This document shows, piece after piece, positions 24,543 to 37,099 of a DNA stretch of 64,000 nucleotides (position 1 is its first letter; every line of letters starts with the position of its first letter). Where the stretch lies: positions 1 to 64,000 of the IMG/VR virus record IMGVR_UViG_2558860984_000001; one strand, written 5' to 3'. This DNA comes from a virus (lineage: Duplodnaviria; Caudoviricetes). Under the pieces are notes generated by a model, which did not search any database, was not told the origin of the DNA, and saw nothing but the letters and a program-made list of their open reading frames with translations. The translations under genes and the position numbers were made by a program.

Positions 24543-24841
24543 TGGGCACGAGCCGTACGAGGTGCGTGCCACCCCGGGCTGGCCGCCGGTCGCTATCCCT
24601 GGCCGGCCGGGCTGGTGGCGCCACTGCGGCCCGAACGGTGAGCAGATGGACGCGCCCACGAAGGACCGCGACGCCGCTCTCCGGACAGCACCCACGAAGG
24701 AGCACTGATCCATTCGCAAGGCGGGCGGACTACTGCCGCACATTGCCTACGTCTCGCCGCCGGGATTTTGCGCGCCGTACGCCGCTTGTAATCCGACAAC
24801 ACTGCAATGTCCTTGCAGTATGGGAGAATTGAGGCACTCAA

Positions 24842-24900
24842 GACCCCGGCGGGTGCGCGAACACCCCCGGGGCATGGCCGACTGGTTAGGAGTCGACATG
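24842..24900 (+). promoter_or_regulatory. Structured leader: CGCGAA-loop hairpin plus RBS-sequestering hairpin (copy 1)
   Basis: CCCCGG..GGTG-CGCGAA-CACC..CCGGGG; CATGGCCGACT pairs with AGTCGACATG; near-identical copy at 45329. Confidence 0.6.
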
Positions 24901-25728
24901 GAGCAGCTTAGTTTGGGCTACCCGGATACGCGCGTGGCCCCTTCTATTTTGCCAGAACCCCTCCGTATAGACCTCCCTGAGGCACTACCCGGGCGGCACC
25001 AGCCCGTCGTGTACTTCGTACGGAATGGGACGCGGATCAAGATCGGGTTCACTGTCAACCTCGTATCACGGCTTGCCGGGCTCGGTCTCCGCCGCGAGAA
25101 CGTCGCTCTGCTCCTGGAAGGCGGGAGGCACGTCGAGGGGAAACTGCACCAGCGATTCGCCGAGACCCGCGTCAGCAACACCGAGTGGTTCCAAACCAGC
25201 TCAGACCTGCTTGACTACATCGCACGGCGCTCAACGGAGCCCGCCGCTGGCGTACTCACAGGTGCCCTGGCCCCCACACGGTCAGCGGCGCCAGCCAGGA
25301 CGACCGTTCTCACCCCCGAGCAACGCCCCTCGGCGACGGTCGGCGTCATCGCCCCCGAGATCGCCGAGAAGTATGACCGGAGCCTCCACGCCGTCACCAA
25401 GGACTGGACCCGCCGCCCCGGCTGGCCACCTACGATCGGCAAGAGGGGCCGGTACAAGGAGTACGACGCCCAGGCCGTCGACACCTTCGTCCGCGACCAC
25501 GTCCTGCGCCGCGCCGTCGAACTGGACGTCGGCCGCCTCTACACCGCCGCCGAGCTGGAGGCGGCCGGCGCCGGTATCACCGCCGGGACGATCCGTGCGG
25601 ATCGATCCCGTGGGCGCTGGCCCGAGCCGGACGACCGCACGCACGGCGTCGACCGCTGGCGCGGTGATACCGCCGCCCGCGCGCTCGCCTCCCGCCGCGG
25701 CTACCACCGCGCCGAACGCGGTGACTAA
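24898..25728 (+). CDS. GIY-YIG (T5orf172-like) domain plus C-terminal HTH-like repeats
   Basis: VYFVR..IKIGFT..E..LHQRF..EWF. Confidence 0.8.
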   Translation: MEQLSLGYPDTRVAPSILPEPLRIDLPEALPGRHQPVVYFVRNGTRIKIGFTVNLVSRLAGLGLRRENVALLLEGGRHVEGKLHQRFAETRVSNTEWFQTSSDLLDYIARRSTEPAAGVLTGALAPTRSAAPARTTVLTPEQRPSATVGVIAPEIAEKYDRSLHAVTKDWTRRPGWPPTIGKRGRYKEYDAQAVDTFVRDHVLRRAVELDVGRLYTAAELEAAGAGITAGTIRADRSRGRWPEPDDRTHGVDRWRGDTAARALASRRGYHRAERGD

Positions 25729-25833
25729 CACACAGTGGACCGAACGAGCGTTCCCATCGCATGATCGTTACACGGTGCGCCGACTCGCTCACGACCGCCG
25801 TGCATGCGACCTGCACCGGGAAAGGGCCCCACG

Positions 25834-26580
25834 ATGCCCATGCCCACGTGGACGCTGCAACGCGGCGACGCGCTGACCGCCCTGCACACCCTCCCCACCG
25901 GATCGGTTGACGCCGTCATCACTGACCCGCCGTACAACTCCGGCGGCACCAGCCCCGCCTCCCGGACCGCCAGGACCGCACGCAAGAAGTACGTCAGCAC
26001 CGACGCACGACACGACCTGCCGGATTTCGATGGCGACACCCGCGACCAGCGCGGCTACCTCGCCTGGATGACCCTCGTCCTCGGCCAGTGCCTGCGCATT
26101 GCCCGGACCGGCGCCCCGCTGCTCGTCTTCACCGACTTCCGCCAGCTCCCGGTCACGTCCGACGCGCTGCAGGCCGCAGGCTGGACCTGGCGCGGCATCG
26201 TGCCGTGGCACAAGCCCATCAGCCGGCCGTACCGCGGAGGCTTCCGGCGCGAGTGCGAATACGTGCTGTGGGCCACCAACGGGCCCGTCGACGCTGCCCG
26301 TAACCCGGTCTTCCTTCCCGGTCTGTACAGCGCCTCTCAGCCGCGAGGAAGCCGCCGGCACCACATCACCCAGAAGCCCGACGAGCTGATGACCGAGCTG
26401 GTGCGCATCTGCTGCCCTGAGGGCACCGTGATGGACCCGTTCGCCGGCTCCGGCTCCACCGGAGTCGCTGCCCTGCGCTCCGGGCGTTCGTTCGTCGGCG
26501 TCGAGCTGTCCGAGGTCATCGCGGACAGGGCCCGTGCCCGCCTCGATGACGTGGCGCCTGCGGCTTCAGTCGGCGGGTAG
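25834..26580 (+). CDS. DNA methyltransferase, N4-C/N6-A beta class
   Basis: TDPPY, HITQKP, DPFAGSGST. Confidence 0.92.
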   Translation: MPMPTWTLQRGDALTALHTLPTGSVDAVITDPPYNSGGTSPASRTARTARKKYVSTDARHDLPDFDGDTRDQRGYLAWMTLVLGQCLRIARTGAPLLVFTDFRQLPVTSDALQAAGWTWRGIVPWHKPISRPYRGGFRRECEYVLWATNGPVDAARNPVFLPGLYSASQPRGSRRHHITQKPDELMTELVRICCPEGTVMDPFAGSGSTGVAALRSGRSFVGVELSEVIADRARARLDDVAPAASVGG

Positions 26581-27121: not shown

Positions 27122-27574
27122 TTACCCCTCGCGTTCAACCAGGGCGCCGAAGAAGTCCGCGATCTCCTCATCGCGCAGTTCCTCGTTGCTGCGCTGAAGG
27201 TCAGCGACGTTGGCCCGCTGGCGGGCATCCAGCCAGGGGCCTGGCTGGTGCGTCATCGCCGACAGTTCGTGCGCCGTGTAGGCATCGAAGGACTTGAGGA
27301 TCATGTCGACGGACTCCCGCTCGCCGTCGTCGAGGGCCGCAGGGTCGCCCTCGATGGAGTCCTTGTCGAGGCGGAAGCGCCCCCGGTGCTGGTCGTACAA
27401 CTCGTAGACCACTGGCCCGTTGGCCCAAGCCTCGAAGCGCTCGGGGAACAGTTGGCGGTCCTCCCAGGCGAGGTGGTAGCCGTAGGCGAAGTAGCAGAGC
27501 TTCTGCAGCTTCATGGCCGACATCGGGGCAGCTTTGGCCAGTATGTAGGCGGCAACATCCTGCACGCTTGGCAT
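27122..27574 (-). CDS. Panacea/DUF4065 (SocA-like) antitoxin
   Basis: DVAAYIL, MKLQKLCYFA, FEAWANGPV, LSAMTH..PW. Confidence 0.9.
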   Translation of the reverse strand: MPSVQDVAAYILAKAAPMSAMKLQKLCYFAYGYHLAWEDRQLFPERFEAWANGPVVYELYDQHRGRFRLDKDSIEGDPAALDDGERESVDMILKSFDAYTAHELSAMTHQPGPWLDARQRANVADLQRSNEELRDEEIADFFGALVEREG

Positions 27575-27871
27575 GTTGATCCCCTTCTGTGTCTCTCCTC
27601 TGCACCGTAACGAGCGGCCGGCGCGATGGTCTCGGATAGCCGAGGGACATGAAGAGACTTCCCCCTGTCAGACCCAGCCTATCGGGGGGGTGCTGCGGCG
27701 GTAAGGGGGCAGGTTCGCCCCGAAAACAACTGATCTACGCCATCGCTCGGCGGGGTACACAGCGAGGGCTTCGCTCGCGCGTTCGAGGCTCTGGCGAGTC
27801 CGACGGCGTTGGCCGTGCAGCGGTGCAGGCATGCATGGGGCAGGGGCCTCGGGCGGTGCCCGTCCGGCAGC

Positions 27872-29212
27872 CTACGCGGTCAGGCTCGTGGCGACGCGTT
27901 CGCGGAAATCGTTCACGGCGGCAGGCGCCTCGGGGCGGGTCATGCTGGTGGCCAGGGCGCGTAGTGGTCCGGCGGCGCGGTGGGAACTGATCTCCTCGGC
28001 CAGGTCGAGCGCCTGGTGTCCGGTGGCGCAGGCGCGTTCGATTTCGTTCTGACGCCATTGGGCGTCGGCTCGGCGGGCGAGGAACAGACAGTGGGTGCGT
28101 ACCCGGTTGGCGGGGAAGAGACCGGCGGTTTCGATGAACGTTTCCTCGGCCCGGCCGGGCTGGTTGAGGTCCAGGTGGGTAGAGGCACGGGCGCCGAGGA
28201 GTTCGGAGCGGTCGAACCAGTAGACCCACTCGGGGTCGCCGCCGGGGGCCTGGTCGGCGGTGTCGAGGAGTTCGGCGGCCCGGTCGAGGTCGGCGAATGC
28301 GGCGGAGTCGTTTTGGTGGGCGCGCGCCCGGGCGCGGCGGGAGAGCAGCATGGCTTCGACGCGCGGGGTGGTCCGTCCACGGGCGGCGGCCAGCGCCGCA
28401 GCGGCCATGGCTTCGGCGTCGGCTGGCCGGTCGGTGTTGTTGGCGGCGATGGACCAGAACGCCAGGATGTGGCTGCCGAGGACGGGGTCGCCGGAGGCGT
28501 GGGCGGAGCGCAGCGCGGCGTGGAACATGCCGTCGGCGCACTCGTTGTTGATGTCGAAGTCCGCCCAGGCGTGGATGCGGGCCAGGTCTGCTGCGGCAGC
28601 GTGGAGCCGGGAGCCGTGGGCGTCGCTGTAGGAGCGGTCTTTCAGCAGCTGGACAACGAGTTCGAGAGCGGCGGCGGTCTCGGTGAGGAGCTGGCCGCCG
28701 CCGTCGAGGTCATCAGCGCGTCGGAGCTGGCGGACGCGTTCTTCGACGTGGTCGACCGCGGCTTCGCCGATGCGGCGGGCGTGGGTGATTTGGCCGGCGG
28801 CGGCCGGGTCGGCGGTCAGCCACGCCCACAGCGATGCGGTGAGGGTGGTGCCGGTGAGGAGCGTGAAGTGGCGGCGGTCCATGGTGATGATCTCCCTCCC
28901 GGACACTTCGGCAAGCGCCTGGATGGCGCCGGATGCGTCCCAGGTGTGGCGGGTGGGTTGCTGAAGCGGGTCCAGGCCCAGCCAGCGGGGCCAGGGGTGC
29001 CGGTCCACTGCTTCTCCTGGTATGTCCAGCAACTCGGCGATGAGGCGCCGGGTGACCAGGTCGGGGCAGCGGCCGGCCTCCCAGCGGTAGACGCCGTCCT
29101 TGCCGGTGCCCACCGGCAGGCCACGGCGGGCGCCCAGTTCCCGTAAGCGCCGGGCGAATTCGGGTGGCGTCCAGCCGCGTACCTGGCGCGCCCGGGTCAG
29201 CGGATGTGCCAT
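27872..29212 (-). CDS. XRE-HTH plus TPR-like helical-repeat regulator
   Basis: GGAGG RBS; RGWT..VYRWEAGRCP HTH; MDRRHF segment; Ala-rich helical repeats; TTA at codon 23. Confidence 0.85.
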   Translation of the reverse strand: MAHPLTRARQVRGWTPPEFARRLRELGARRGLPVGTGKDGVYRWEAGRCPDLVTRRLIAELLDIPGEAVDRHPWPRWLGLDPLQQPTRHTWDASGAIQALAEVSGREIITMDRRHFTLLTGTTLTASLWAWLTADPAAAGQITHARRIGEAAVDHVEERVRQLRRADDLDGGGQLLTETAAALELVVQLLKDRSYSDAHGSRLHAAAADLARIHAWADFDINNECADGMFHAALRSAHASGDPVLGSHILAFWSIAANNTDRPADAEAMAAAALAAARGRTTPRVEAMLLSRRARARAHQNDSAAFADLDRAAELLDTADQAPGGDPEWVYWFDRSELLGARASTHLDLNQPGRAEETFIETAGLFPANRVRTHCLFLARRADAQWRQNEIERACATGHQALDLAEEISSHRAAGPLRALATSMTRPEAPAAVNDFRERVATSLTA

Positions 29213-29290
29213 CAGCCCTCCCTGCGGCGTCGGCGCCGGGGCGAACACGTCGACGGTAGCGGCCTGGCCTGACCGGGCGGAACAGTGCCG

Positions 29291-29325
29291 CCGGGTGCTC
29301 TTGGGGTGCTCTTGGGAGCACCCGG
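29291..29325. promoter_or_regulatory. Putative operator between the regulator and the lasso operon
   Basis: Inverted repeat CCGGGTGCTC/GAGCACCCGG plus direct repeat GGGTGCTCTTGG x2 with an 11-bp period. Confidence 0.55.
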
Positions 29326-29463
29326 ACCGCACCCGGTGTCCTGCTTCCCCCGCTCCGGGTGGTCGGAGACGGTGGTGGACATGCCCCGCCGCGACCCTCC
29401 CGGCCGGATGCCGGGAACCCACAGGCAAGCGGCGAAGACCCCCCTCACCTGGGAGGCAATCAG

Positions 29464-29640
29464 ATGATGGACGACGAGCAGACCCCCGTCACCACCCAGC
29501 CCGCCGCCGCGGACAACGCCGTCACCGAGCCGGGCAGCGGCGGCTTCGACCCGCAGATCAGCACCCACCCGGTGGCCGCGCTCACCCTGGGCCGTCAGAC
29601 GTTCAACGACTCGGACAAGTCGAACTATTTCGAGGGCTGA
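29464..29640 (+). CDS. Lasso peptide precursor (58 aa); predicted core GRQTFNDSDKSNYFEG
   Basis: GGAGG RBS 7 nt upstream; leader ..FDPQISTHPVAALTL with Thr at -2, Gly1, Asp7/Asp9; directly upstream of the cyclase. Confidence 0.85.
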   Translation: MMDDEQTPVTTQPAAADNAVTEPGSGGFDPQISTHPVAALTLGRQTFNDSDKSNYFEG

Positions 29641-29663
29641 CAGCCGGGACATCACCGAGTAAC

Positions 29664-29699
29664 CCCGGGGGCCGGCCGCTGCGGCGGGCGGCCCCCGGG
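29664..29699 (+). terminator. GC-rich hairpin after the precursor gene (attenuator/stabiliser)
   Basis: CCCGGGGGCCG / CGGCCCCCGGG arms. Confidence 0.55.
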
Positions 29700-29721
29700 C
29701 GCACGTCGCGGGAGGCGGCAG

Positions 29722-31470
29722 ATGGAACGGGAGTGGATAGCCGGCGGCACCGCCGCCGGGAACGGAACAGCCGTTGAAGGGCTCGACGGTGTGCGCCGGT
29801 CGCCGGCCGCGCGAGCCTGCGCGGCCGGGGAAGGGCCAGTCTGCCTCGCGGTAGTCGGCGACTGTCCGGTCACCGAACAGGAACTCCGCAGCGCCCTGCC
29901 GGCCGTGCAGGCGGGCCGGTGGGCCGAACTGACCCGGTGGCCCGGCTCGTACTGGGTGCTCGCAGCCAGCGGAGGACAGCAGTTCGTGTGCGGAGACCTC
30001 GCCGGCGTCCGCGCCGTCTACTACACGGCGCACGAGGAGGGGACGGCGTGGGCGACCGAGCCGGGCCTGCTCGGCCGCCCCCTCGTCCCAGACCTGCCGC
30101 ACGTGGCGGCGCGGCTGACGGCCGGGGAACACCACTGGCCGCACCGCAGCCCGTACGAGCGGGTCCGGCAGGTGCCGGGCGGGTCCGGGATGCTCGTGAC
30201 GCCCGGCGCGCCCCCGCAGCTCGTCGACGTCCGCCAGGTCGAGCCGGTCGGCGAACTCCGCGAGGGCGCTGAGGAGTTCGGCCGCGCGCTCACCGACGCC
30301 GTCGAGCACCGCGTGCGCGCGGCCGGCTCGGTGGTGGGGGCGGACCTCTCCGGCGGACTGGACTCCTCCGCGGCCGTCATCCTCGCCGCCGCGGCCGGTG
30401 AGGTGCACGCGGTGACGTACACCGACGGCTACACCAGCGCCGAGGACGCCGCGTACGCCGCCCGCACCGCCGAGCACACCGGCGTGCGCCACACGATCGC
30501 CGCCGGCGGCCTGACGCACCTTCCCTTCGGATTCGCGCCAGGGCAGCCGGTGTCCGCGGAGCCGGTCCCGGACGCCGCGATCTACGCCATGGACGCCGCG
30601 TACCTGAAGCCGGTGCGCGGCCTGCCGCTGCACCTGACGGGGCACGGCGGGGACATCGTCCTCGACGCCTCCAGCTCGTGCTGGGTGCGCCTGGTGCAGG
30701 ACGGCGGGTGGCGAGAGGCCCGCCGCCAGGTCGTGGCGGTCGCCCGTCTCCGCAACACCGACCCCGGGCCCTACTGGAAGGCGTTGAAGGAGACCGCGCG
30801 CCTGGGCCGTTCCAGATCCCTGCGCCGAGCGGCCGACGCCCTAGAGCGCGGGCCCGTGACCGCGGACCCGGCCGCGGCGGGCTGGTCGTGGTGCCGCCTG
30901 GGGGCCGCAGCGTCGTGGCTGACGGGGGAGGGCCGCCAGCAGGTCGCCGTGCAGCTGCGGCAAGCTGCCGCTGACCGGCAGCCGGAACTGGCCGACGAGT
31001 TCGAGCAGTGGGCCGCCCTCCGCTCTGCCGGCGCATCCGCCCGTGGCTGGGCCCCGTACGCCGCGGCTCTCGGCGTGACCCCGGTGTACCCGTACCTCGA
31101 CAACGAGGTCGTCCGCGCCGCGTTCGCCGTCCCGGCGCTCGCCCGCCGCGGGGTGATCACGTACAAGCCGCTGCTGCCCGCCGCGCTGCCGCAGTTGCCC
31201 CGGTGGCTGACCTCCCGGCGCTCGAAGGGCTCGTTCACCCCGCAGCGCATCGCCGGCCTCGCCCGCCACCGCGCCCGTCTCGACGAGCTGATCACGGCGA
31301 GTCCGCTCGTCGCCGCAGGGCTGATCGACGCCGCGGCCGTGAGCGCATCGCTCGCCCAGGCGGCCCGCGGCCAGAGCGCCACGGACATCGCCGACCTGCA
31401 CCAGCTGCTCGTCACCTGCTGGTGGCTCACCGGCCAGCCGGCGGCCGCGGGGAAGGAGGCGCTGTGCTGA
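29722..31470 (+). CDS. Lasso macrolactam cyclase (asparagine synthase-like, C protein)
   Basis: GDLAG.R.VYY, DLSGGLDSS, LTGHGGD, PYLDNEV, YKPLL, RRSKG. Confidence 0.93.
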   Translation: MEREWIAGGTAAGNGTAVEGLDGVRRSPAARACAAGEGPVCLAVVGDCPVTEQELRSALPAVQAGRWAELTRWPGSYWVLAASGGQQFVCGDLAGVRAVYYTAHEEGTAWATEPGLLGRPLVPDLPHVAARLTAGEHHWPHRSPYERVRQVPGGSGMLVTPGAPPQLVDVRQVEPVGELREGAEEFGRALTDAVEHRVRAAGSVVGADLSGGLDSSAAVILAAAAGEVHAVTYTDGYTSAEDAAYAARTAEHTGVRHTIAAGGLTHLPFGFAPGQPVSAEPVPDAAIYAMDAAYLKPVRGLPLHLTGHGGDIVLDASSSCWVRLVQDGGWREARRQVVAVARLRNTDPGPYWKALKETARLGRSRSLRRAADALERGPVTADPAAAGWSWCRLGAAASWLTGEGRQQVAVQLRQAAADRQPELADEFEQWAALRSAGASARGWAPYAAALGVTPVYPYLDNEVVRAAFAVPALARRGVITYKPLLPAALPQLPRWLTSRRSKGSFTPQRIAGLARHRARLDELITASPLVAAGLIDAAAVSASLAQAARGQSATDIADLHQLLVTCWWLTGQPAAAGKEALC

Positions 31471-31757
31471 CCCCCGCACCGCACATCCGCTACGCCACCG
31501 CCCAGCACGGCACCGCGGTCCTCGACATCCGGCACGGGACGTGGATCATGCTCGGCCCTCACGCCTCGCAGGTCTGGCGTGCGGTCACCGCCCGCGGCGG
31601 CACGGACGGGCTCGCCGACGAGATCGCCGTTCCCACCGGCCAGGACCCGGCCGCGGTCGACGGGCACATCACCGAGTTCGTCACCGAGCTGGTCGACGCT
31701 GGCGTACTCGTCGACGCCGACCGCCCGGCCCCGCGCAGACGGAGGTGGTGGCGGTGA
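31464..31757 (+). CDS. Lasso RRE / PqqD-family B1 protein
   Basis: GTAVLDIRHG.W..L...ASQVW..FVTELVDAGVL. Confidence 0.88.
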   Translation: MLTPAPHIRYATAQHGTAVLDIRHGTWIMLGPHASQVWRAVTARGGTDGLADEIAVPTGQDPAAVDGHITEFVTELVDAGVLVDADRPAPRRRRWWR

Positions 31758-32170
31758 CGGTCATGGTTCCCGGCGCCCGGCCCACCGCGACCCGCAGCGA
31801 CCGGATCGTCGCGGCCGCCGCGCTCGTCCTCTCCCTGGCGCTGGGCCAGCTGCCGCTGCGCTGGCGGATCGCCGCCGTGCGGCTGGTGCGCGGCCTGCCG
31901 CACGCCCGCCTGGCCCGTCTCGAAGCCTTGCACGCCGCCGTCCTCGCCGTGGCCCCCGTGTGGTGGCCGGGCCGCATCGCCTGCCTGGAGACCAGCCTCG
32001 CCACCGTCATCGCGGCCGCCATGACCGGCCGCCGGGCCCACTGGGTGCTCGGCGCCCGGTTCCTGCCCGACGGCGCGCACGCCTGGGCCGAAGTCCCCGA
32101 AGGCGCTGTGGGCCGGGACGAGGGCGACGCCGTGGACCGGCCGTGGCTGCCCGTCCTCACCGTGCCGTAG
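31754..32170 (+). CDS. Lasso leader peptidase B2 (transglutaminase-like)
   Basis: ACLETSLA (Cys) and AHAWAE (His). Confidence 0.88.
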   Translation: MTVMVPGARPTATRSDRIVAAAALVLSLALGQLPLRWRIAAVRLVRGLPHARLARLEALHAAVLAVAPVWWPGRIACLETSLATVIAAAMTGRRAHWVLGARFLPDGAHAWAEVPEGAVGRDEGDAVDRPWLPVLTVP

Positions 32171-32280: not shown

Positions 32281-34239
32281 GTGACCGGCAGCGATCCGCA
32301 AGACCCGGAACAAATCCGTTGTCCGGCTCAGGGCCCGGCCGCCTTGATGGGGGCCGTGACTACCTCCGCATCCCCGCCGGCGGCCGCCGGCGCGGGCCAG
32401 CCGCCCGTGATGCGCCTGGCCTCCGACCCGCACCTCACCTCGAACGTCACCATGTCCACGTGGGCGATAGCACGCCGCCTGCCCCGCACGCTCGCCGCCG
32501 CGGCACGCCTCGCGTGGCGCACCGACCGCCGCGCGGCCCTGGCCCTGCTCGGCTGCCAGATCGGCGCCGCCGTCCTCACCGCGACCGCCCTCGCAGCCAC
32601 CACCCGCGTGCTGGCCGCGGTGTTCACCGGCGGCGACATCGCCGCCGGGCTGCGCGACAACCTGACGGCAGTCCTCATCCTCACCGCCGCCGGGGGCGGC
32701 CGCTACCTCCTCGACGCCGCCGCCCGCGCCGCCGCGGCCCAGCTCGCGCCGAAGGCCGTACGCGAAGCCGACCTCGCGGTCATCACCGCCGCCACCGCCG
32801 CCGAGCTGGTCGCCTACGAGGACCCCGCCTTCGAAGACGCCCACGCCGCCGCCTCCGACGGGGCGGACAAGACCGGCGACCTCATCGTCGAAGGCCAGCT
32901 GCTGACGTCCGCCGCCGCCCAGCTCGCCGCCGCCGCGACGGTCGTCACCGTGCTGCACCCGGTGCTGCTGCCGCTCCTCGTCGCATCCGTCATCCCCTGT
33001 GCGTGGGGCGCCGTACGCGGCGCGCGCATCGAGCACGCCGCGCACCACCGCAACCTCGGCGACTCCCGGCTGCGCAGCGTCTTCCGCTCCTACACCACCG
33101 AGCGGAACACCGCCGACGAAGTGCGCGCCGGCACGATGGCCGGATTCCTCACCCGGCAGTACCGGATCGTGTCCGGCCGCCTGGAGGCCGAGCAGCTCGC
33201 CGCCACCCGGCAGGCCCTGCTCGTGCAGGGCGCTGGCGACGCCCTCACCGCCGTCGGGACCCTCGCCACCTGGACCACGCTCGTGCTCCTGGTGTCCGCC
33301 GGCCGCATGGAACTCGCCGCCGCCGGGACCGCCGCGCTCGCCGTGCGGGCTTCCGGCGCCGCGCTCACCACGACGGTCTGGGCCGGCGCCCGGCTGTTCC
33401 GCACCTCACTGTCCCTCGACGACTGGACCCGGTTCCTTGCCGTGGCCGAGGAGTGGACCGCCCGCCGCGGCACTGCCGCCGTCGCAGACGACGGCCCGCA
33501 CATCATCGCCGCCCACGGCGTCTCCTTCACCTACCCCGGCGCCGCCCGGCCCGCGCTCGACGACATCGACCTCGACCTCAAGCGCGGCGAAGTCATCGCC
33601 CTCGTCGGCGAGAACGGCGCAGGCAAAAGCACCCTCGCCCGCATCCTCACCGGCCTGTACCTCCCCACCACCGGCACCGTGCGATGGGACGGCGTCGACC
33701 TCGCGGAAGCGGACCCCGCCACCGTGCTGTCCAAGGTCGCGCTCGTCCCCCAGGACTACACCCGGTGGCCGCTGGCCGCCCGCGAGAACATCACCCTCGG
33801 TCAGCCCCGCCCCGAAGGCGACACCGCCGTGCACGCCGCTGCCGAAGCCGCCGGCGCCGACAGTGTCATCGCCGACCTGCCGAACGGTCTGGGTACCTCC
33901 CTGGCTCGCTCCTGGTGGGGCGGCCACGACCTGTCCGGCGGGCAGTGGCAACGCATCGCCGTCGCGCGAGCCTTCCACCGCGACGCACCCGTTCTCGTCA
34001 TGGACGAGCCCACCGCAGCGCTCGACGCCCGCGCAGAGCACCGCATCTACACCCGACTCAAGGCGCTGGCCGCCGGCCGCGCCGCCGTCTTCATCACCCA
34101 TCGGCTCGCCAACACCCGCCTCGCCGACCGCATCATCGTCCTGGACCACGGCCGCGTATCCGAAGCGGGAACCTACGACGAGCTGATGGACCAGGCCGGG
34201 GACTTTGCAGAGATGGTGAAGCTCCAGGAGGACAGGTAG
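32281..34239 (+). CDS. ABC exporter (TMD + NBD)
   Basis: GENGAGKST, LSGGQWQR, VMDEP, ITHR; exact start uncertain. Confidence 0.93.
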   Translation: MTGSDPQDPEQIRCPAQGPAALMGAVTTSASPPAAAGAGQPPVMRLASDPHLTSNVTMSTWAIARRLPRTLAAAARLAWRTDRRAALALLGCQIGAAVLTATALAATTRVLAAVFTGGDIAAGLRDNLTAVLILTAAGGGRYLLDAAARAAAAQLAPKAVREADLAVITAATAAELVAYEDPAFEDAHAAASDGADKTGDLIVEGQLLTSAAAQLAAAATVVTVLHPVLLPLLVASVIPCAWGAVRGARIEHAAHHRNLGDSRLRSVFRSYTTERNTADEVRAGTMAGFLTRQYRIVSGRLEAEQLAATRQALLVQGAGDALTAVGTLATWTTLVLLVSAGRMELAAAGTAALAVRASGAALTTTVWAGARLFRTSLSLDDWTRFLAVAEEWTARRGTAAVADDGPHIIAAHGVSFTYPGAARPALDDIDLDLKRGEVIALVGENGAGKSTLARILTGLYLPTTGTVRWDGVDLAEADPATVLSKVALVPQDYTRWPLAARENITLGQPRPEGDTAVHAAAEAAGADSVIADLPNGLGTSLARSWWGGHDLSGGQWQRIAVARAFHRDAPVLVMDEPTAALDARAEHRIYTRLKALAAGRAAVFITHRLANTRLADRIIVLDHGRVSEAGTYDELMDQAGDFAEMVKLQEDR

Positions 34240-34454
34240 CCCTTCGTCCGCGCATGGGCCCGCCATGAGCATGCCGCGCGTGTCGACGGGCTGGCTGGCT
34301 CAGAACGCCGCTTCCGTGGTGGCCACGGGGTGGCAGCTTGGACAGCGGCTGATGTGCGGGCTGCCGCCGCGGTCTGTCTCGACCTGCCGTGTCGACTCCT
34401 CGCACGCGCCGCACCACGGCGCGGTCGGCGTCCTCTGGGCTGGGTGTTGCTTCT

Positions 34455-34495
34455 CCCTAGAAAGGTGTCACAATAGGTGTGACACCTTTCTAGGG
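34455..34495. promoter_or_regulatory. Perfect 18-bp inverted repeat with 5-nt spacer
   Basis: CCCTAGAAAGGTGTCACA-ATAGG-TGTGACACCTTTCTAGGG, just before the ATG at 34502. Confidence 0.8.
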
Positions 34496-34501
34496 GGGCT
34501 A

Positions 34502-35431
34502 ATGCCGACCGATGACCTGATCACCCGCATTCCTGACGACGCCACCCGTATCCGCACCCACCTGGGGTGGTACGTGGAACCGGTCAGTGCCCGCCGCGCC
34601 ATGGAGCGCTACCCCGGTATCCGGCTGAACCCGGTGACCTGCGAAAGCGGACCCGTCCTACTCCACGTCAGCAACGTGGACCGCAACCGCCTGATGGGCT
34701 TGGCCCCCGGCCGCCTCAAGGTGTGGTCGGACGGCCTCCTCACCACCCGCGAGCTTCACCTTCCCGCCGATATCCACCCGGTTCCCGCCGATATCCTCCC
34801 GGACAGACAGGCTGCAGAGGACTGGTGCGCTCAATATGAAGCTTTCACCGCCACCGAGCGCCTGCTGAACCGGATCAAACGCGCCGCCAACGACGAGCTG
34901 ACGCCGCGGCTGTGGATGCCCTGGCGGGACGCCACCGGCTGGAACGAAGAGGAGACGGACCGGCGCACCACACGGCGCGCGCTGGCCGCCGATATCCAGG
35001 CAATCCGCCGACTGACCCTCATCCGCCACACAGTCGACCAGGCCGACGGCACGCCAGCCACCGTCTGGGAGGTCGTCTTCCTGGTGAAGGCGGTTGAGGG
35101 CGCCGCTGAGCACGGCATCCGCTTCGGCCAGCGCCGGTGGCTCTTCACCGAGGAAACCCGTGCACGCGCCCGCCTGGCGGACCTGGACACCGACGTCCCT
35201 CCGCTGGTCACCATGGCAGAAAGCGCCGCGCTGCTGAACACCACCCGGGACGCGCTCGCCCAGGCCCACTCCCGCGCCAAGCAGCGGCACCACGAGAACC
35301 CCTTCTTGTACGACCTGCCGCCGGTGCCCCTGGTGACCACCGGGCGCACCAACTGGTACGAGCCGCACGAACTCGCCACCTTCTGGCGACAGCGTCCCGG
35401 CCACGGGCCCGGACGCGGCCACACCTCCTAA
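34502..35431 (+). CDS. Hypothetical protein with C-terminal AlpA/Xis-like HTH
   Basis: VTMAESAALLNTTRDAL..P.P...GRTNWY. Confidence 0.6.
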   Translation: MPTDDLITRIPDDATRIRTHLGWYVEPVSARRAMERYPGIRLNPVTCESGPVLLHVSNVDRNRLMGLAPGRLKVWSDGLLTTRELHLPADIHPVPADILPDRQAAEDWCAQYEAFTATERLLNRIKRAANDELTPRLWMPWRDATGWNEEETDRRTTRRALAADIQAIRRLTLIRHTVDQADGTPATVWEVVFLVKAVEGAAEHGIRFGQRRWLFTEETRARARLADLDTDVPPLVTMAESAALLNTTRDALAQAHSRAKQRHHENPFLYDLPPVPLVTTGRTNWYEPHELATFWRQRPGHGPGRGHTS

Positions 35432-35818: not shown

Positions 35819-37099
35819 TCAGCAGTTGATGATCATGTTGCTGCCGCTGCTGTACTCCTTCATCAGCGCCGTGTCGACGAACTGGTCGGTGTAGAGCCTG
35901 CGGGCAGCCGGCTCGCCCATGTTCTCGATGGCGGCCAGGACCAGCCCCGGGTCTGCGGCGGCGGCTGAGCGGAGATCGATCACCTCTTCATGGGTCAGCT
36001 GCTCGACGTCGATGGTGTCGTTCTCGCCGTGCACGGTGGCGTATCCGTTGCTGGCGATCTGCTGGGCCAGTTCGGTCCGGGCCTGCCGGAATGCCTCGTT
36101 GGGCTCGGTCGGTGCGGCAGGCGGACGCCTATGGGTGCGGCGGCGCAGCTCGGCGGTGATGAAGGCGGCAGGGCGGGCCGGGCGCCAGCCCAGCCACCAC
36201 GAGGTGAGTTCGGCGGCGATGTCGTGGGCGTCGAGACCGCGGTCGATGAGGGGGCGGAACGCGAACGCGAGGCGCCGCAGGCCCTCGTGCTGCGTCCAGC
36301 CGACGAGCGGACGCACCCGGCGGGCCACGGCGATGTCCCGGGCTACCTGAACCGGTGACCGGCGTGGCCTGCTCGGGGTGGTCAAGGGGGGTGTTGTGCG
36401 GCGCCGCGCGTGCGCGGTGTCTTTCAACCCACCTCCCAACTGATCTCTACGGATACTGGGGTGAGTACTACGAGAATGGGGCTCACGACCCTGTGAACTG
36501 GTGCTTCCCGCAGCCGAGTTGGTCACGGGCCGGGCCGCGGCCGTGCGGGCATCCCGCGCTGCACGAGCGGCGCGGACGGCTCGTTCCCGGCCGGCCTGGG
36601 TGACGCCGACGACCCGCGCGTCGTAGCCGGTGCCGGACAGCCGGTTGCCCATCGCCTCGTCGAACACGGGCGGGATCACCGCGGCGTACACCGTCGCCGT
36701 GCCGGCGTACTTCCGGCCGGGCAGGTGCAGGTTCGCGCGGGAGCCGTGCCGCCACCACGCCAGCGCACCAAGCTCACGAAGCACCCGGACGTGCCGCTTC
36801 ACCGTCGCCCGGGACACGTCGAGGCGCGCTGCGGTGCCGTCGAGGTCGTACAGCACCAGGCCACGCCGGTAGTCCATCCGGCGCGCCAGATCCGCGGCCA
36901 CCGCCGCCGTGGTGGCGTTGGCACGCGGGTGCAGCCCGGCACCGAGCAGACAGCCGACGACACGCAGCCACGGGCGTGGCTCCACGCGGCGCGAACGGGT
37001 GGCCGCAGCCTCCTGGAGCGGGCGAGGCACCAAGGGCTGGGGGGTTTTGAGGCAGGGGGTATCTGCGCAGCACGAAGCCGCGCCCAGGCGGTGGCGCAA
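35819..37099 (-). CDS. wHTH protein, possibly a plasmid-type replication initiator
   Basis: TAARLDVSRATVKRHVRVLRELGAL; function inferred. Confidence 0.6.
   Translation of the reverse strand: MRHRLGAASCCADTPCLKTPQPLVPRPLQEAAATRSRRVEPRPWLRVVGCLLGAGLHPRANATTAAVAADLARRMDYRRGLVLYDLDGTAARLDVSRATVKRHVRVLRELGALAWWRHGSRANLHLPGRKYAGTATVYAAVIPPVFDEAMGNRLSGTGYDARVVGVTQAGRERAVRAARAARDARTAAARPVTNSAAGSTSSQGREPHSRSTHPSIRRDQLGGGLKDTAHARRRTTPPLTTPSRPRRSPVQVARDIAVARRVRPLVGWTQHEGLRRLAFAFRPLIDRGLDAHDIAAELTSWWLGWRPARPAAFITAELRRRTHRRPPAAPTEPNEAFRQARTELAQQIASNGYATVHGENDTIDVEQLTHEEVIDLRSAAAADPGLVLAAIENMGEPAARRLYTDQFVDTALMKEYSSGSNMIINC

Follow-up and report, generated by a model that had tools for sequence, protein, structure and literature searches.

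A conserved internal start codon in an NsdA-family regulator beside a lasso peptide cluster probably yields a second product lacking the DNA-binding domain

In the case of the Tn5 transposase and its inhibitor, a truncated form opposes the full-length form. The same is described for the LAP and LIP isoforms of C/EBPbeta (PMC6572810), and in both systems one mRNA gives rise to a full-length DNA-binding protein and to a form that is shortened at its N-terminus but still has the interaction domain. C/EBPbeta is eukaryotic and makes use of leaky scanning, and for the bacterial regulator described here an opposing action is hypothesised. In Escherichia coli, an internal start at a domain boundary of arcB gives a second protein, detected by Ribo-RET and western blot (10.1101/520783); the criteria of that study (a threshold for the anti-SD duplex and a start within 15 nt) resemble those that we used for the regulator. 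ArcB/ArcB-C and the regulator likewise have in common an SD-like sequence and an in-frame start at the domain boundary, conserved across species. However, ArcB-C is known at the protein level and the short form of the regulator is predicted from sequence; furthermore, unlike ArcB, the regulator would lose its DNA-binding domain in the short form, and a TTA codon is found in its long form only.

The dependence of TTA-containing genes on the bldA tRNA is established for Streptomyces, and this control is usually viewed as an on/off gate on a regulator. The bldA-controlled pathway regulators resemble the present one in having a rare, position-conserved and early TTA in a cluster-situated regulator; unlike in the usual bldA targets, the TTA is found here in just one of two predicted products, so that bldA would shift the ratio of the isoforms rather than switch the gene on. 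In architecture, the regulator has in common with the NsdA/NsdB family (NF053720, NF050130, NF050135) an N-terminal helical domain and a TPR-like domain. We think that this gene, a cluster-situated NsdA-family regulator of a divergent lasso operon, most likely has two in-frame products, both translated from a single mRNA, i.e. that it probably makes both the full DNA-binding protein and a shorter form without the DNA-binding part.

The regulator is encoded on the minus strand of the window (the whole stretch of 64,000 nucleotides analysed, part of a 113.6-kb record). Its full-length CDS (27872..29212) specifies 446 aa, in which an HTH-like domain of five helices at the N-terminus is joined by a linker to a TPR superhelix; the 446-codon frame runs from the ATG at 29212 to the stop at 27872-27874. 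The SD of this start, AGGGAGGG (29216..29223, minus strand), is followed by CTG and then by the ATG. Its duplex has a dG of -11.4 in the window and of -9.4 to -11.5 in 10 of 12 homologues, and an SD precedes the aligned start in most of the full-length homologues checked, the starts assumed for L005 (dG -2.7) and L022 (+0.2) having none. A longer ORF from a TTG at 29428 (518 aa) was rejected, since the ATG at 29212 has the conserved SD and fits the N-termini of the homologues; that the extension would cross a conserved repeat array (see below) also counts against it.

The protein matches the NCBIfam model NF053720 with 314 bits (cut-off 75), residues 3-439 falling on profile positions 1-432. 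It is itself neither NsdA nor NsdB: it scores 83.9 bits against the 830 of the equivalog model of NsdA proper (NF050130) and 53.6 bits against the 700 of the NsdB model, and it is about 25-28% identical to the NsdA orthologues L048-L052. The family is large, with 10-17 matches in each of the five Streptomyces genomes searched (E <= 1e-10); the subfamily of the regulator is rare (at E <= 1e-80, it occurs in 10 of the 401 Streptomyces genomes sampled), and a lasso cluster is its frequent neighbour. A further search of the genus, with another genome at its centre, covered an identical sample and added no loci. All relatives found are from Streptomyces, one orthologue lying on a plasmid of S. antimycoticus (NZ_CP108859), and a scan of viral contigs with the homologue alignment returned no relative. 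Pfam gave no family at E <= 1 for the full-length protein, and thus no HTH model; homologues bear the source name "XRE family transcriptional regulator", and a distant one (P0112) has PF01381/PF13560. The AlphaFold2 model (mean pLDDT 90.3) has five short helices in residues 4-71, TPR structural matches cover residues 125-446, and the sole stretch with a pLDDT below 50, residues 108-123, contains M111.

The link to a lasso cluster, already made in the original prediction, holds: precursor, cyclase, B protein and transporter lie divergent from the regulator, all on the plus strand. They are a precursor peptide of 58 aa (29464..29640; …ALTL/GRQTFNDSDKSNYFEG), with Thr at -2 and a core beginning with Gly1 (…ALTL/GRQTFNDSDK…), an asparagine synthase-like cyclase (29722..31470; Asn_synthase, PF00733, E 2.8e-24), a transglutaminase-like B protein (31541..32170; Transglut_core3, PF13471, E 2.3e-10) and an ABC transporter (32281..34239; ABC_tran, PF00005, E 1.3e-30). 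The closest cluster carries a lasso cluster annotation. The divergent layout is common to nine homologous loci, cyclase homologues adjoining the regulator in L001-L005, L021, L027, L028 and L063, and the precursors of the orthologous loci end in …TLG-x(7-9)-DDTEYW/F or DDTQYW.

The divergent intergenic region holds two further conserved elements. About 40 nt upstream of the ATG, a candidate -10 element, TACCGT (29253..29258, minus strand), lies within the motif GCTACCGTC, which is found upstream of the gene in the window and in L001-L004, L007 and L021, and as GCTAGCGTC in L022 and L023. The Streptomyces -10 pattern is TAnnnT, and on this pattern we infer that TACCGT is the -10 element of the regulator promoter. 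A scan for sigma-70 type promoters over 27700-29700 found nothing, such a scan being uninformative for Streptomyces promoters. The second element is an operator-like array with an 11-bp period (29291..29336), made of two GGGTGCTC repeats, then GAGCACCC and a degenerate CCGCACCC; it contains a direct repeat (D1) and an inverted repeat (I2). Exact copies of GAGCACC were sought in 12 homologue upstream regions, of which seven have two, three have one and L027 and L028 have none. The regulator presumably binds this array.

Within the gene, codons GGG-AGG-GAG (Gly108 Arg109 Glu110) form the sequence GGGAGGGAG (28892..28900, minus strand), and an in-frame ATG, codon 111 (28880..28882, minus strand), opens the peptide MDRRHF. 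The ATG at 28882 with a strong SD 9 nt upstream, as had been predicted, is thus present; the spacer is 12 nt, i.e. long, if it is counted from the GGAGG core. The duplex has a dG of -12.3 kcal/mol and equals or exceeds in strength the SD of the gene's own start (all duplex calculations were made with an assumed anti-SD sequence). It takes up the only AGG/AGA among the 51 Arg codons of the gene and the only GGG among its 29 Gly codons. Synonymous shuffles reached the observed SD in 1 of 2000 trials for the window, 0/2000 for L001, 1/2000 for L004 and for L006, 3/2000 for L007, 7/2000 for L028 and 15/2000 for L027. In the chance background, made of 81 GC3-filtered ORFs of the 113.6-kb record, a duplex as strong as -12.3 precedes 3 of 555 internal in-frame ATG/GTG and 2 of 193 ATG, ATG111 included. 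By itself, the internal SD of the window, at 1 in 100 to 1 in 200 per codon, would therefore not be remarkable; the finding exceeds chance because this SD is conserved at the nucleotide level. Local mRNA folding at the site is only mildly weaker than in the rest of the gene (8-88% of folding windows being as weak or weaker).

Across 16 homologues (40-100% identity) aligned by codons, no other conserved anti-SD site in the gene is as strong as the one just upstream of M111, which has a median minimum dG of -9.4 and 15 of 16 sequences at or below -6, against a median of -6.7 for the runner-up. When 13 further sequences are added to these 16, an in-frame ATG or GTG is present at the internal site in all 29 that cover the region (again 40-100% identity), and the dG is at or below -8 in 19 of them, against 43 of the 555 internal ATG/GTG of the record. 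These sequences are related, and the counts are not independent events. The SD is weak (dG above -8) in the other 10, which include two lasso-linked orthologues, L002 (-6.3; 271/2000 shuffles) and L005 (-5.8; 455/2000), as well as L030, L032 and L045, a pseudogene that has a stop at codon 99 and is frameshifted further on. Among the other loci found, L025 carries a TGA, L008 and L009 are fragments, and L029, apparently a paralogue with split HTH and TPR parts, was excluded because the gene is frameshifted and its downstream frame lacks a start.

Different clades encode the SD by different residues: SGRE by GGGAGGGAG, SRRD by AGGAGGGAC with the Met moved by two codons, WRE by TGGAGGGAA with a GTG start, VGSD by GGGAGC, LRSGR by GAGGAGC, TRGA by AAGGGG and AGGS by GCAGGAGGT. 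Where the start residue is Val, its codon is GTG in 10 of 10 cases, and in 32 of 149 for the other Val codons of those genes. In favour of an internal start, 76 of the 82 full-length proteins in which the RR motif was located have a Met or Val no more than 7 residues ahead of it (chance expectation 0.33). A hydrophobic Met, Val or Ile 2-3 residues before this motif is a family-wide protein feature, even without an SD, so that the Met alone proves nothing. The NsdA orthologues provide a negative control, since they retain a Met at the equivalent place and, unlike the regulator, have no SD there (dG -0.9 to -2.5 in 5 of 5). The site of the regulator thus has what would be expected of a functional in-frame internal start, namely a conserved SD-like site with an in-frame start and less synonymous variation. 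The original prediction had proposed the conservation of the SD at synonymous positions as a check; the alignment, the shuffles and the GTG bias all indicate that it is conserved and under selection, and they show, for the homologues compared, that throughout the subfamily selection on the nucleotide sequence maintains the internal SD and start.

Selection at this site might nevertheless serve something other than initiation. The purine-rich patch of rare codons, GGG AGG GAG, could be a programmed slow-down at the domain boundary, acting by anti-SD pausing or by the use of a rare tRNA-Arg(CCU), so that the HTH folds before the TPR domain emerges and only the full-length protein is made. The patch is indeed placed, in the structural model, exactly at the linker between the two domains, and rare AGG/AGA recurs at the second Arg of the RR motif, often beside the GGG AGG GAG patch (CGC AGG in 12 of 12 metagenome sequences showing the RR motif, and in L002, L003 and L005), this second AGG having no explanation by SD function. 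However, a pause needs no in-frame start 4-12 nt downstream, and yet all 29 sequences have one; it does not need GTG for Val, which is the codon in every one of the 10 cases against 21% elsewhere; and the position of the Met moves together with the SD in L004, L002 and L031, as it would for a start. Anti-SD pausing inside genes is, moreover, disputed. We therefore regard a slow-down with a single product as unlikely.

It could also be argued that the internal SD and start are a functionless leftover from an ancient fusion of an HTH gene to a TPR gene with its own translation start, preserved by shared ancestry and codon inertia. The element does sit at the junction of the two domains, TPR-only database entries exist, and the relatedness of the compared sequences means that our counts overstate the number of independent events. 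Yet at 40-55% protein identity synonymous sites should be mostly randomised, and the SD persists; it reappears in new codon and amino-acid guises across clades, and the rare AGG has been kept in genes where AGG/AGA account for only 46 of the 703 Arg codons. The SD was lost, or was never present, in NsdA proper and in most paralogues, which shows that it decays when it is not maintained. A mere remnant thus appears quite improbable to us, and the use of the internal site as a start remains our preferred reading.

The predicted short isoform (27872..28882, minus strand) would have 336 aa and consist of the TPR domain without the HTH (NF053720 profile positions 106-432). Several database entries, 335-343 aa long, have their first residue at the internal start or no more than a few codons away, but we did not take them as proof of stand-alone truncated genes. 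In L062, PGAP calls the internal GTG as the start (GGGAGG, 7 nt, GTG) despite an in-frame HTH upstream; this HTH being intact, the short entry reflects the annotator's choice of a start site. L006 is truly without the HTH and retains just weak remnants of it (E 0.13). None of the papers that a literature search brought up deals with an internal start or with isoforms in the NsdA family.

The in-frame TTA announced at codon 23 (Leu) is present at 29144..29146 on the minus strand. It had been placed in the HTH region, which is borne out in so far as it falls within helix 16-29 of the predicted five-helix N-terminal domain, a domain in which Pfam finds no HTH. TTA is scarce in the 113.6-kb record (7 of 25,670 codons and 7 of 2,107 Leu codons), whose sole tRNA is a tRNA-Gly. 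Eight sequences (the window, L001, L002, L003, L004, L009, L024 and L026) share this TTA in one alignment column, other homologues have a TTA at three further N-terminal columns, and in homologues with at least 53% identity every TTA lies within codons 1-26, upstream of the internal start. There is no TTA in L007 and L028, and in L027, L035 and L042 it lies downstream of the internal start. TTA codons generally cluster towards the 5' ends of genes, so that this position gives the isoform idea weak support. A literature search combining NsdA, "TTA codon" and Streptomyces found no paper, and bldA is mentioned in none of the papers that came up together with the C/EBPbeta article.

The original prediction also held that the short form escapes bldA control. 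It is free of TTA, as this requires, but the internal start is also found without an upstream TTA in several clades and paralogues (L007, L028, L031-L040, L015, L016, L062), which argues against bldA control as the primary purpose of the short form. As its distribution indicates, the internal start far exceeds the TTA in age and in spread, and the latter looks like a layer added in the closer homologues (53% identity or more).

One may ask whether the short product stays in the cell. Its predicted N-terminus, M-D-R-R-x-F and then some 20 uncharged residues, is similar to a twin-arginine (Tat) signal, and it could be that the internal start is used but that the product is exported via a Tat-like signal, the TPR domain acting outside (for instance by binding the secreted lasso peptide) and the long form remaining inside. 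Across 65 homologues, R113 and R114 hardly vary, and many of 49 paralogues have the motif D-[VMI]-x-R-R-x-F-L ahead of a run of 13-27 uncharged residues. In the family member L062, the short form comes close to the Pfam TAT_signal model (PF10518; 21.3 bits, gathering 22.7) and to TIGR01409 (14.9 bits, cut-off 16.7), but is under both curated cut-offs, and the short form of the window gave no hit to either model at E <= 10. Furthermore, the TPR superhelix begins in the model with the helices from residue 125 onwards, which align as such to solved TPR proteins; L124, T125, L128, W131, D135 and P136 are nearly invariant, unlike in a typical signal peptide, and NCBIfam names the NsdA-family proteins DNA-binding regulators. 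We consider export highly improbable.

A more daring version, in which a single gene would give both an intracellular transcription factor, TTA-gated and acting on DNA, and a Tat-exported TPR receptor or decoy that meets the lasso peptide, is in our opinion just as improbable. If it were true, such a two-compartment design could be general in a large family of Streptomyces regulators, given that NsdA-family paralogues repeatedly show the RR motif and that several subfamilies also have the internal SD and start.

A peptide-binding role would recall the RRNPP regulators (NprR, Rap, AimR), which have a similar layout, with an HTH followed by a TPR superhelix and a ribosomal peptide gene adjoining the regulator. 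Residues 125-446 of the model match the fold of Rap of phage Phi3T (Z 18.6, rmsd 5.1, 281 aligned), AimR (Z 17.9, rmsd 4.2, 254 aligned) and NprR (Z 17.2, rmsd 6.4, 279 aligned), but generic TPR proteins match as high or higher (APPBP2, Z 21.8), helical repeats raising Z by their arrangement alone. The RRNPP regulators have no match with the regulator at the sequence level, and the peptide encoded beside it is the precursor of a lasso peptide rather than a secreted signalling oligopeptide.

Returning to two intracellular products of one mRNA, we suggest the following scenario. The 446-aa form from ATG 29212 would carry the DNA-binding domain and bind the GGGTGCTC/GAGCACCC repeat array between the two promoters; as its translation must pass the TTA at codon 23, we infer that it depends on the bldA tRNA. 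Ribosomes would also initiate in vivo at ATG 28882, which has its own SD exactly at the domain boundary, to give the TTA-free, TPR-only form of 336 aa. Unable to bind DNA, this form may alter the output by joining oligomers of the long form via the TPR domain or, alternatively, by competing for a ligand of that domain, and the ratio of long to short form would rise once the bldA tRNA becomes available.

If this is true, the TTA gates one of two products, a rare tRNA sets the ratio between a DNA-binding and a non-binding form, and this ratio would be a simple developmental timer for a peptide natural product. Hidden second products may be common in the NsdA family, since other subfamilies also have the internal start and there are many members per genome. 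Annotation pipelines already differ on the start that they call for such genes. There is also a practical side for those who try to activate silent lasso clusters by recoding the TTA or by overexpressing the regulator, as the same gene may also yield an antagonist.

The regulator gene is read on the minus strand from ATG 29212 to 27872, a frame of 446 codons. According to the original prediction, it carries a TTA at codon 23 and an in-frame internal ATG behind a strong Shine-Dalgarno (SD) sequence, and this reading is correct: the TTA lies at 29146-29144, the ATG of codon 111 (M111) at 28882-28880, and GGGAGGGAG at 28900-28892, about 9 nt 5' of that ATG, all on the minus strand. From end to end the protein fits the NCBIfam model of NsdA-family TPR-like regulators (314 bits, cut-off 75), and it scores far under the cut-offs of the NCBIfam NsdA and NsdB models; a Pfam search with it matched no family. 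A longer frame from TTG 29428 was rejected, because ATG 29212 is preceded by an SD of its own (AGGGAGGG, followed by CTG and the ATG) and an SD precedes the aligned start in most full-length homologues. The subfamily is uncommon: of 401 Streptomyces genomes sampled, 10 have a member (E <= 1e-80).

Taken in this one sequence, the internal SD could be due to chance, since 3 of the 555 internal in-frame ATG or GTG codons of the record (81 ORFs) follow a duplex of -12.3 kcal/mol or better with what we take to be the anti-SD sequence. The original prediction proposed looking for its conservation at synonymous positions, and both the SD and an ATG or GTG turn out to be kept across homologues (handles L001 to L103 denote homologous or paralogous sequences found by our searches), with signs of selection at those positions. 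When 16 homologues (40-100% identity) were aligned by codon, no other conserved anti-SD site in the gene was as strong as the one directly 5' of M111, which has a median minimum duplex energy (dG) of -9.4, with 15 of 16 sequences at -6 or below; for the second-best site the median is -6.7. An in-frame ATG or GTG occupies the internal-start position in all 29 covering sequences, which are related and do not count as independent events (16 homologues plus 13 metagenome sequences; not counted are L042, in which this region is missing, and L041, a duplicate of L040). At the internal SD, dG is -8 or below in 19 of these 29 sequences, which share ancestry, versus 43 of 555 in the record background.

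The same SD is written in different ways: as GGG AGG GAG in the window-like clade (residues S-G-R-E), AGG AGG GAC in L004 (S-R-R-D, with the Met two codons earlier), TGG AGG GAA followed by GTG in L021 (W-R-E), GGG AGC/AGT in L022, L023 and L036 (V-G-S-D), GAGGAGC in L027 and L028 (L-R-S-G-R), AAGGGG in L024 and L037 (T-R-G-A), and GCA GGA GGT/GGC in L035, L039 and L040 (A-G-G-S; 50-54% identity). Such a pattern would be expected from selection on the RNA, not on the protein. In the window, the SD holds the sole AGG/AGA among the gene's 51 Arg codons and the sole GGG among its 29 Gly codons. When synonymous codons were permuted within each gene (2000 trials), the observed SD strength was reached once in the window, L004 and L006, never in L001, and 3, 7 and 15 times in L007, L028 and L027, respectively; the SD is not unusual by this measure in L002 (271/2000), L005 (455/2000) and L021 (163/2000). 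The internal SD is at least as strong as that of the gene's own start in the window, L001, L003, L004 and L007. Where the start residue is Val, it is encoded by GTG in 10 of 10 sequences, GTG making up 32 of 149 other Val codons of those genes. Finally, a Met or Val lies at most seven residues ahead of the RR motif (R113-R114 in the window) in 76 of 82 full-length proteins from a protein search in which RR could be located (chance expectation 0.33); in several of the six remaining proteins the search pattern had placed RR wrongly.

The second Arg of this motif is often a rare AGG (L002, L003, L005, L030-L040, L046), and CGC AGG occurs in 12 of the 12 metagenome homologues showing the motif, the window having CGC CGC (28868-28873). 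This recurrent AGG lies outside the SD function and may reflect some feature of the RNA or of rare-codon use. A site of translational pausing, or a patch of rare codons, at the linker would explain it but leaves both the obligatory start codon and the GTG bias unexplained.

Within the family, all five NsdA orthologues (L048-L052) keep a Met three residues before RR and lack the SD (dG -0.9 to -2.5). Among 49 paralogues surveyed in five genomes, six (L016, L070, L015, L084, L101, L075) combine a dG of -8.7 or better with an ATG or GTG placed two codons ahead of RR, and L103 has a TTG in place of ATG/GTG; the majority of the 49 have no internal SD/start element. Thus the protein sequence of the family does not by itself produce the element, which is not universal either but is kept in some subfamilies. 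That it is a relic of gene fusion is contradicted by its persistence under changed codons and by the fact that NsdA proper has lost it. Two copies, L006/L014 (S. specialis) and L025, lack the HTH part, homology beginning only a few codons 5' of the internal SD; in L006 a frame of 356 codons is intact and weak traces of the HTH region remain upstream, whereas L025 has an in-frame TGA. L062 (NZ_CP109461.1, 8714-9988), an NsdA-family gene with only 23% identity to the regulator of the window, belongs to the lasso cluster that most resembles the window's own (80.7% DNA identity), where it lies 3' of the ABC transporter instead of diverging from the precursor. PGAP annotates it as a 334-aa TPR protein from an internal GTG, with GGGAGG 7 nt ahead; an in-frame HTH-coding stretch lies upstream, unannotated, behind an ATG without SD.

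An AlphaFold2 model of the regulator (65 homologues) has a mean pLDDT of 90.3, residues 108-123 being the sole stretch below 50, and residues 125-446 align with solved TPR proteins at Z values of up to 21.8. For Rap, AimR, NprR and MalT domain III, Z is 17-18.6. Such values are common for helical repeats and thus indicate a TPR superhelix and nothing more specific. The low-pLDDT stretch and the TPR fold from 125 onward place M111 at the domain junction, so that the short product would comprise the entire TPR domain, preceded by a short flexible segment. Many NsdA-family paralogues (L015-L103) have at this junction a twin-arginine-like motif, D-[VMI]-x-R-R-x-F-L plus 13-27 uncharged residues, as has NsdA proper (…MLARRGFLGTSLA…); the window's counterpart is at 28835-28876 (residues 113-126). 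One could imagine a short form exported by Tat, given that RR-x-F and the uncharged stretch are family-wide and that L062 falls just under the Pfam TAT_signal and TIGR01409 cut-offs; however, a Tat-signal search of the window's short form gave no match, and residues from 125 on are modelled within the TPR fold.

The codon-23 column is TTA in the window, L001, L002, L003, L004, L009, L024 and L026; other TTA codons fall in the columns of window residues 4 (L005), 5 (L001, L022, L023) and 26 (L021, L026). Every TTA of homologues with at least 53% identity lies within codons 1-26. More distant homologues have TTA at codons 79 (L030), 81 (L033) and 45 (L036), or 3' of the internal start (L027, L035, L042), and many sequences have none. 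This dissolving pattern indicates that the internal start is older and wider than the TTA, which appears to be a layer added in the closer homologues (at least 53% identity), including most lasso-linked ones; for these homologues, a link to bldA, the Streptomyces tRNA that decodes TTA, is plausible.

Between regulator and precursor, an operator-like array with an 11-bp period (29291-29336) consists of two direct GGGTGCTC repeats, then an inverted GAGCACCC and a degenerate CCGCACCC. GAGCACC occurs in 10 of 12 homologue upstream regions (twice in seven, once in three) and is absent upstream of L027 and L028 (40% identity). About 40 nt 5' of the regulator start, the motif GCTACCGTC(G/A) at 29251-29260 is also visible upstream in L001-L004, L007 and L021, and as GCTAGCGTC in L022 and L023; it includes TACCGT, which fits the -10 pattern TAnnnT.

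The divergent lasso cluster comprises a 58-aa precursor (29464-29640, …ALTL/GRQTFNDSDKSNYFEG), an asparagine-synthase-like cyclase, a transglutaminase-like B protein and an ABC transporter. A cyclase homologue adjoins the regulator in L001-L005, L021, L027, L028 and L063 (an S. antimycoticus plasmid copy); among L001-L005, the regulator shows 65-79% identity, their cyclases just 31-37% to the cyclase of the window. The precursors beside orthologous regulators (L001-L005, L021, L063, window) form a family with the conserved leader …Y-T/V-P-A-V-V-T-E-L-G-T-V-T-G-A-T-L and an acidic aromatic tail (DDTEYW/F or DDTQYW), those found in L001-L005, L021 and L063 sharing …TLG-x(7-9)-DDTEYW/F or DDTQYW; L003 has two precursor genes, and the window's core, GRQTFNDSDKSNYFEG, diverges most. 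Past the ABC transporter lie an ORF of 426 aa (35819-37099, minus strand; weak HTH_20 match, no clear family) and one of 388 aa (34265-35431, plus strand; no family match), neither of which resembles the regulator by BLASTP. Near the regulator are a T5orf172/MUG113 protein (24820-25728), a DNA methylase (25804-26580) and a SocA/Panacea antitoxin-like protein (27122-27574). The window has a G+C content of about 70%, its 113.6-kb source record carries a single tRNA-Gly, all nine relatives from a genome-contig search are Streptomyces, and the nearest DNA matches to regulator and cluster lie on large Streptomyces plasmids. The record, though labelled a virus, may be a plasmid or other mobile element rather than a phage.

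On comparative evidence, an SD and a start at the domain boundary are maintained at the nucleotide level, and a conserved TTA lies in the stretch unique to the predicted long form. In E. coli arcB, a conserved SD-like sequence and an in-frame start at a domain boundary give rise to ArcB-C (10.1101/520783), a verified precedent for the use of both starts. The predicted existence of two isoforms is strongly supported by the comparisons among homologues. Both starts would be used; the long form would require the bldA tRNA and may bind the repeat array at 29291-29336, and the short form could alter output through TPR-mediated association or competition for a ligand. What would be combined here are in-frame internal initiation and TTA control.
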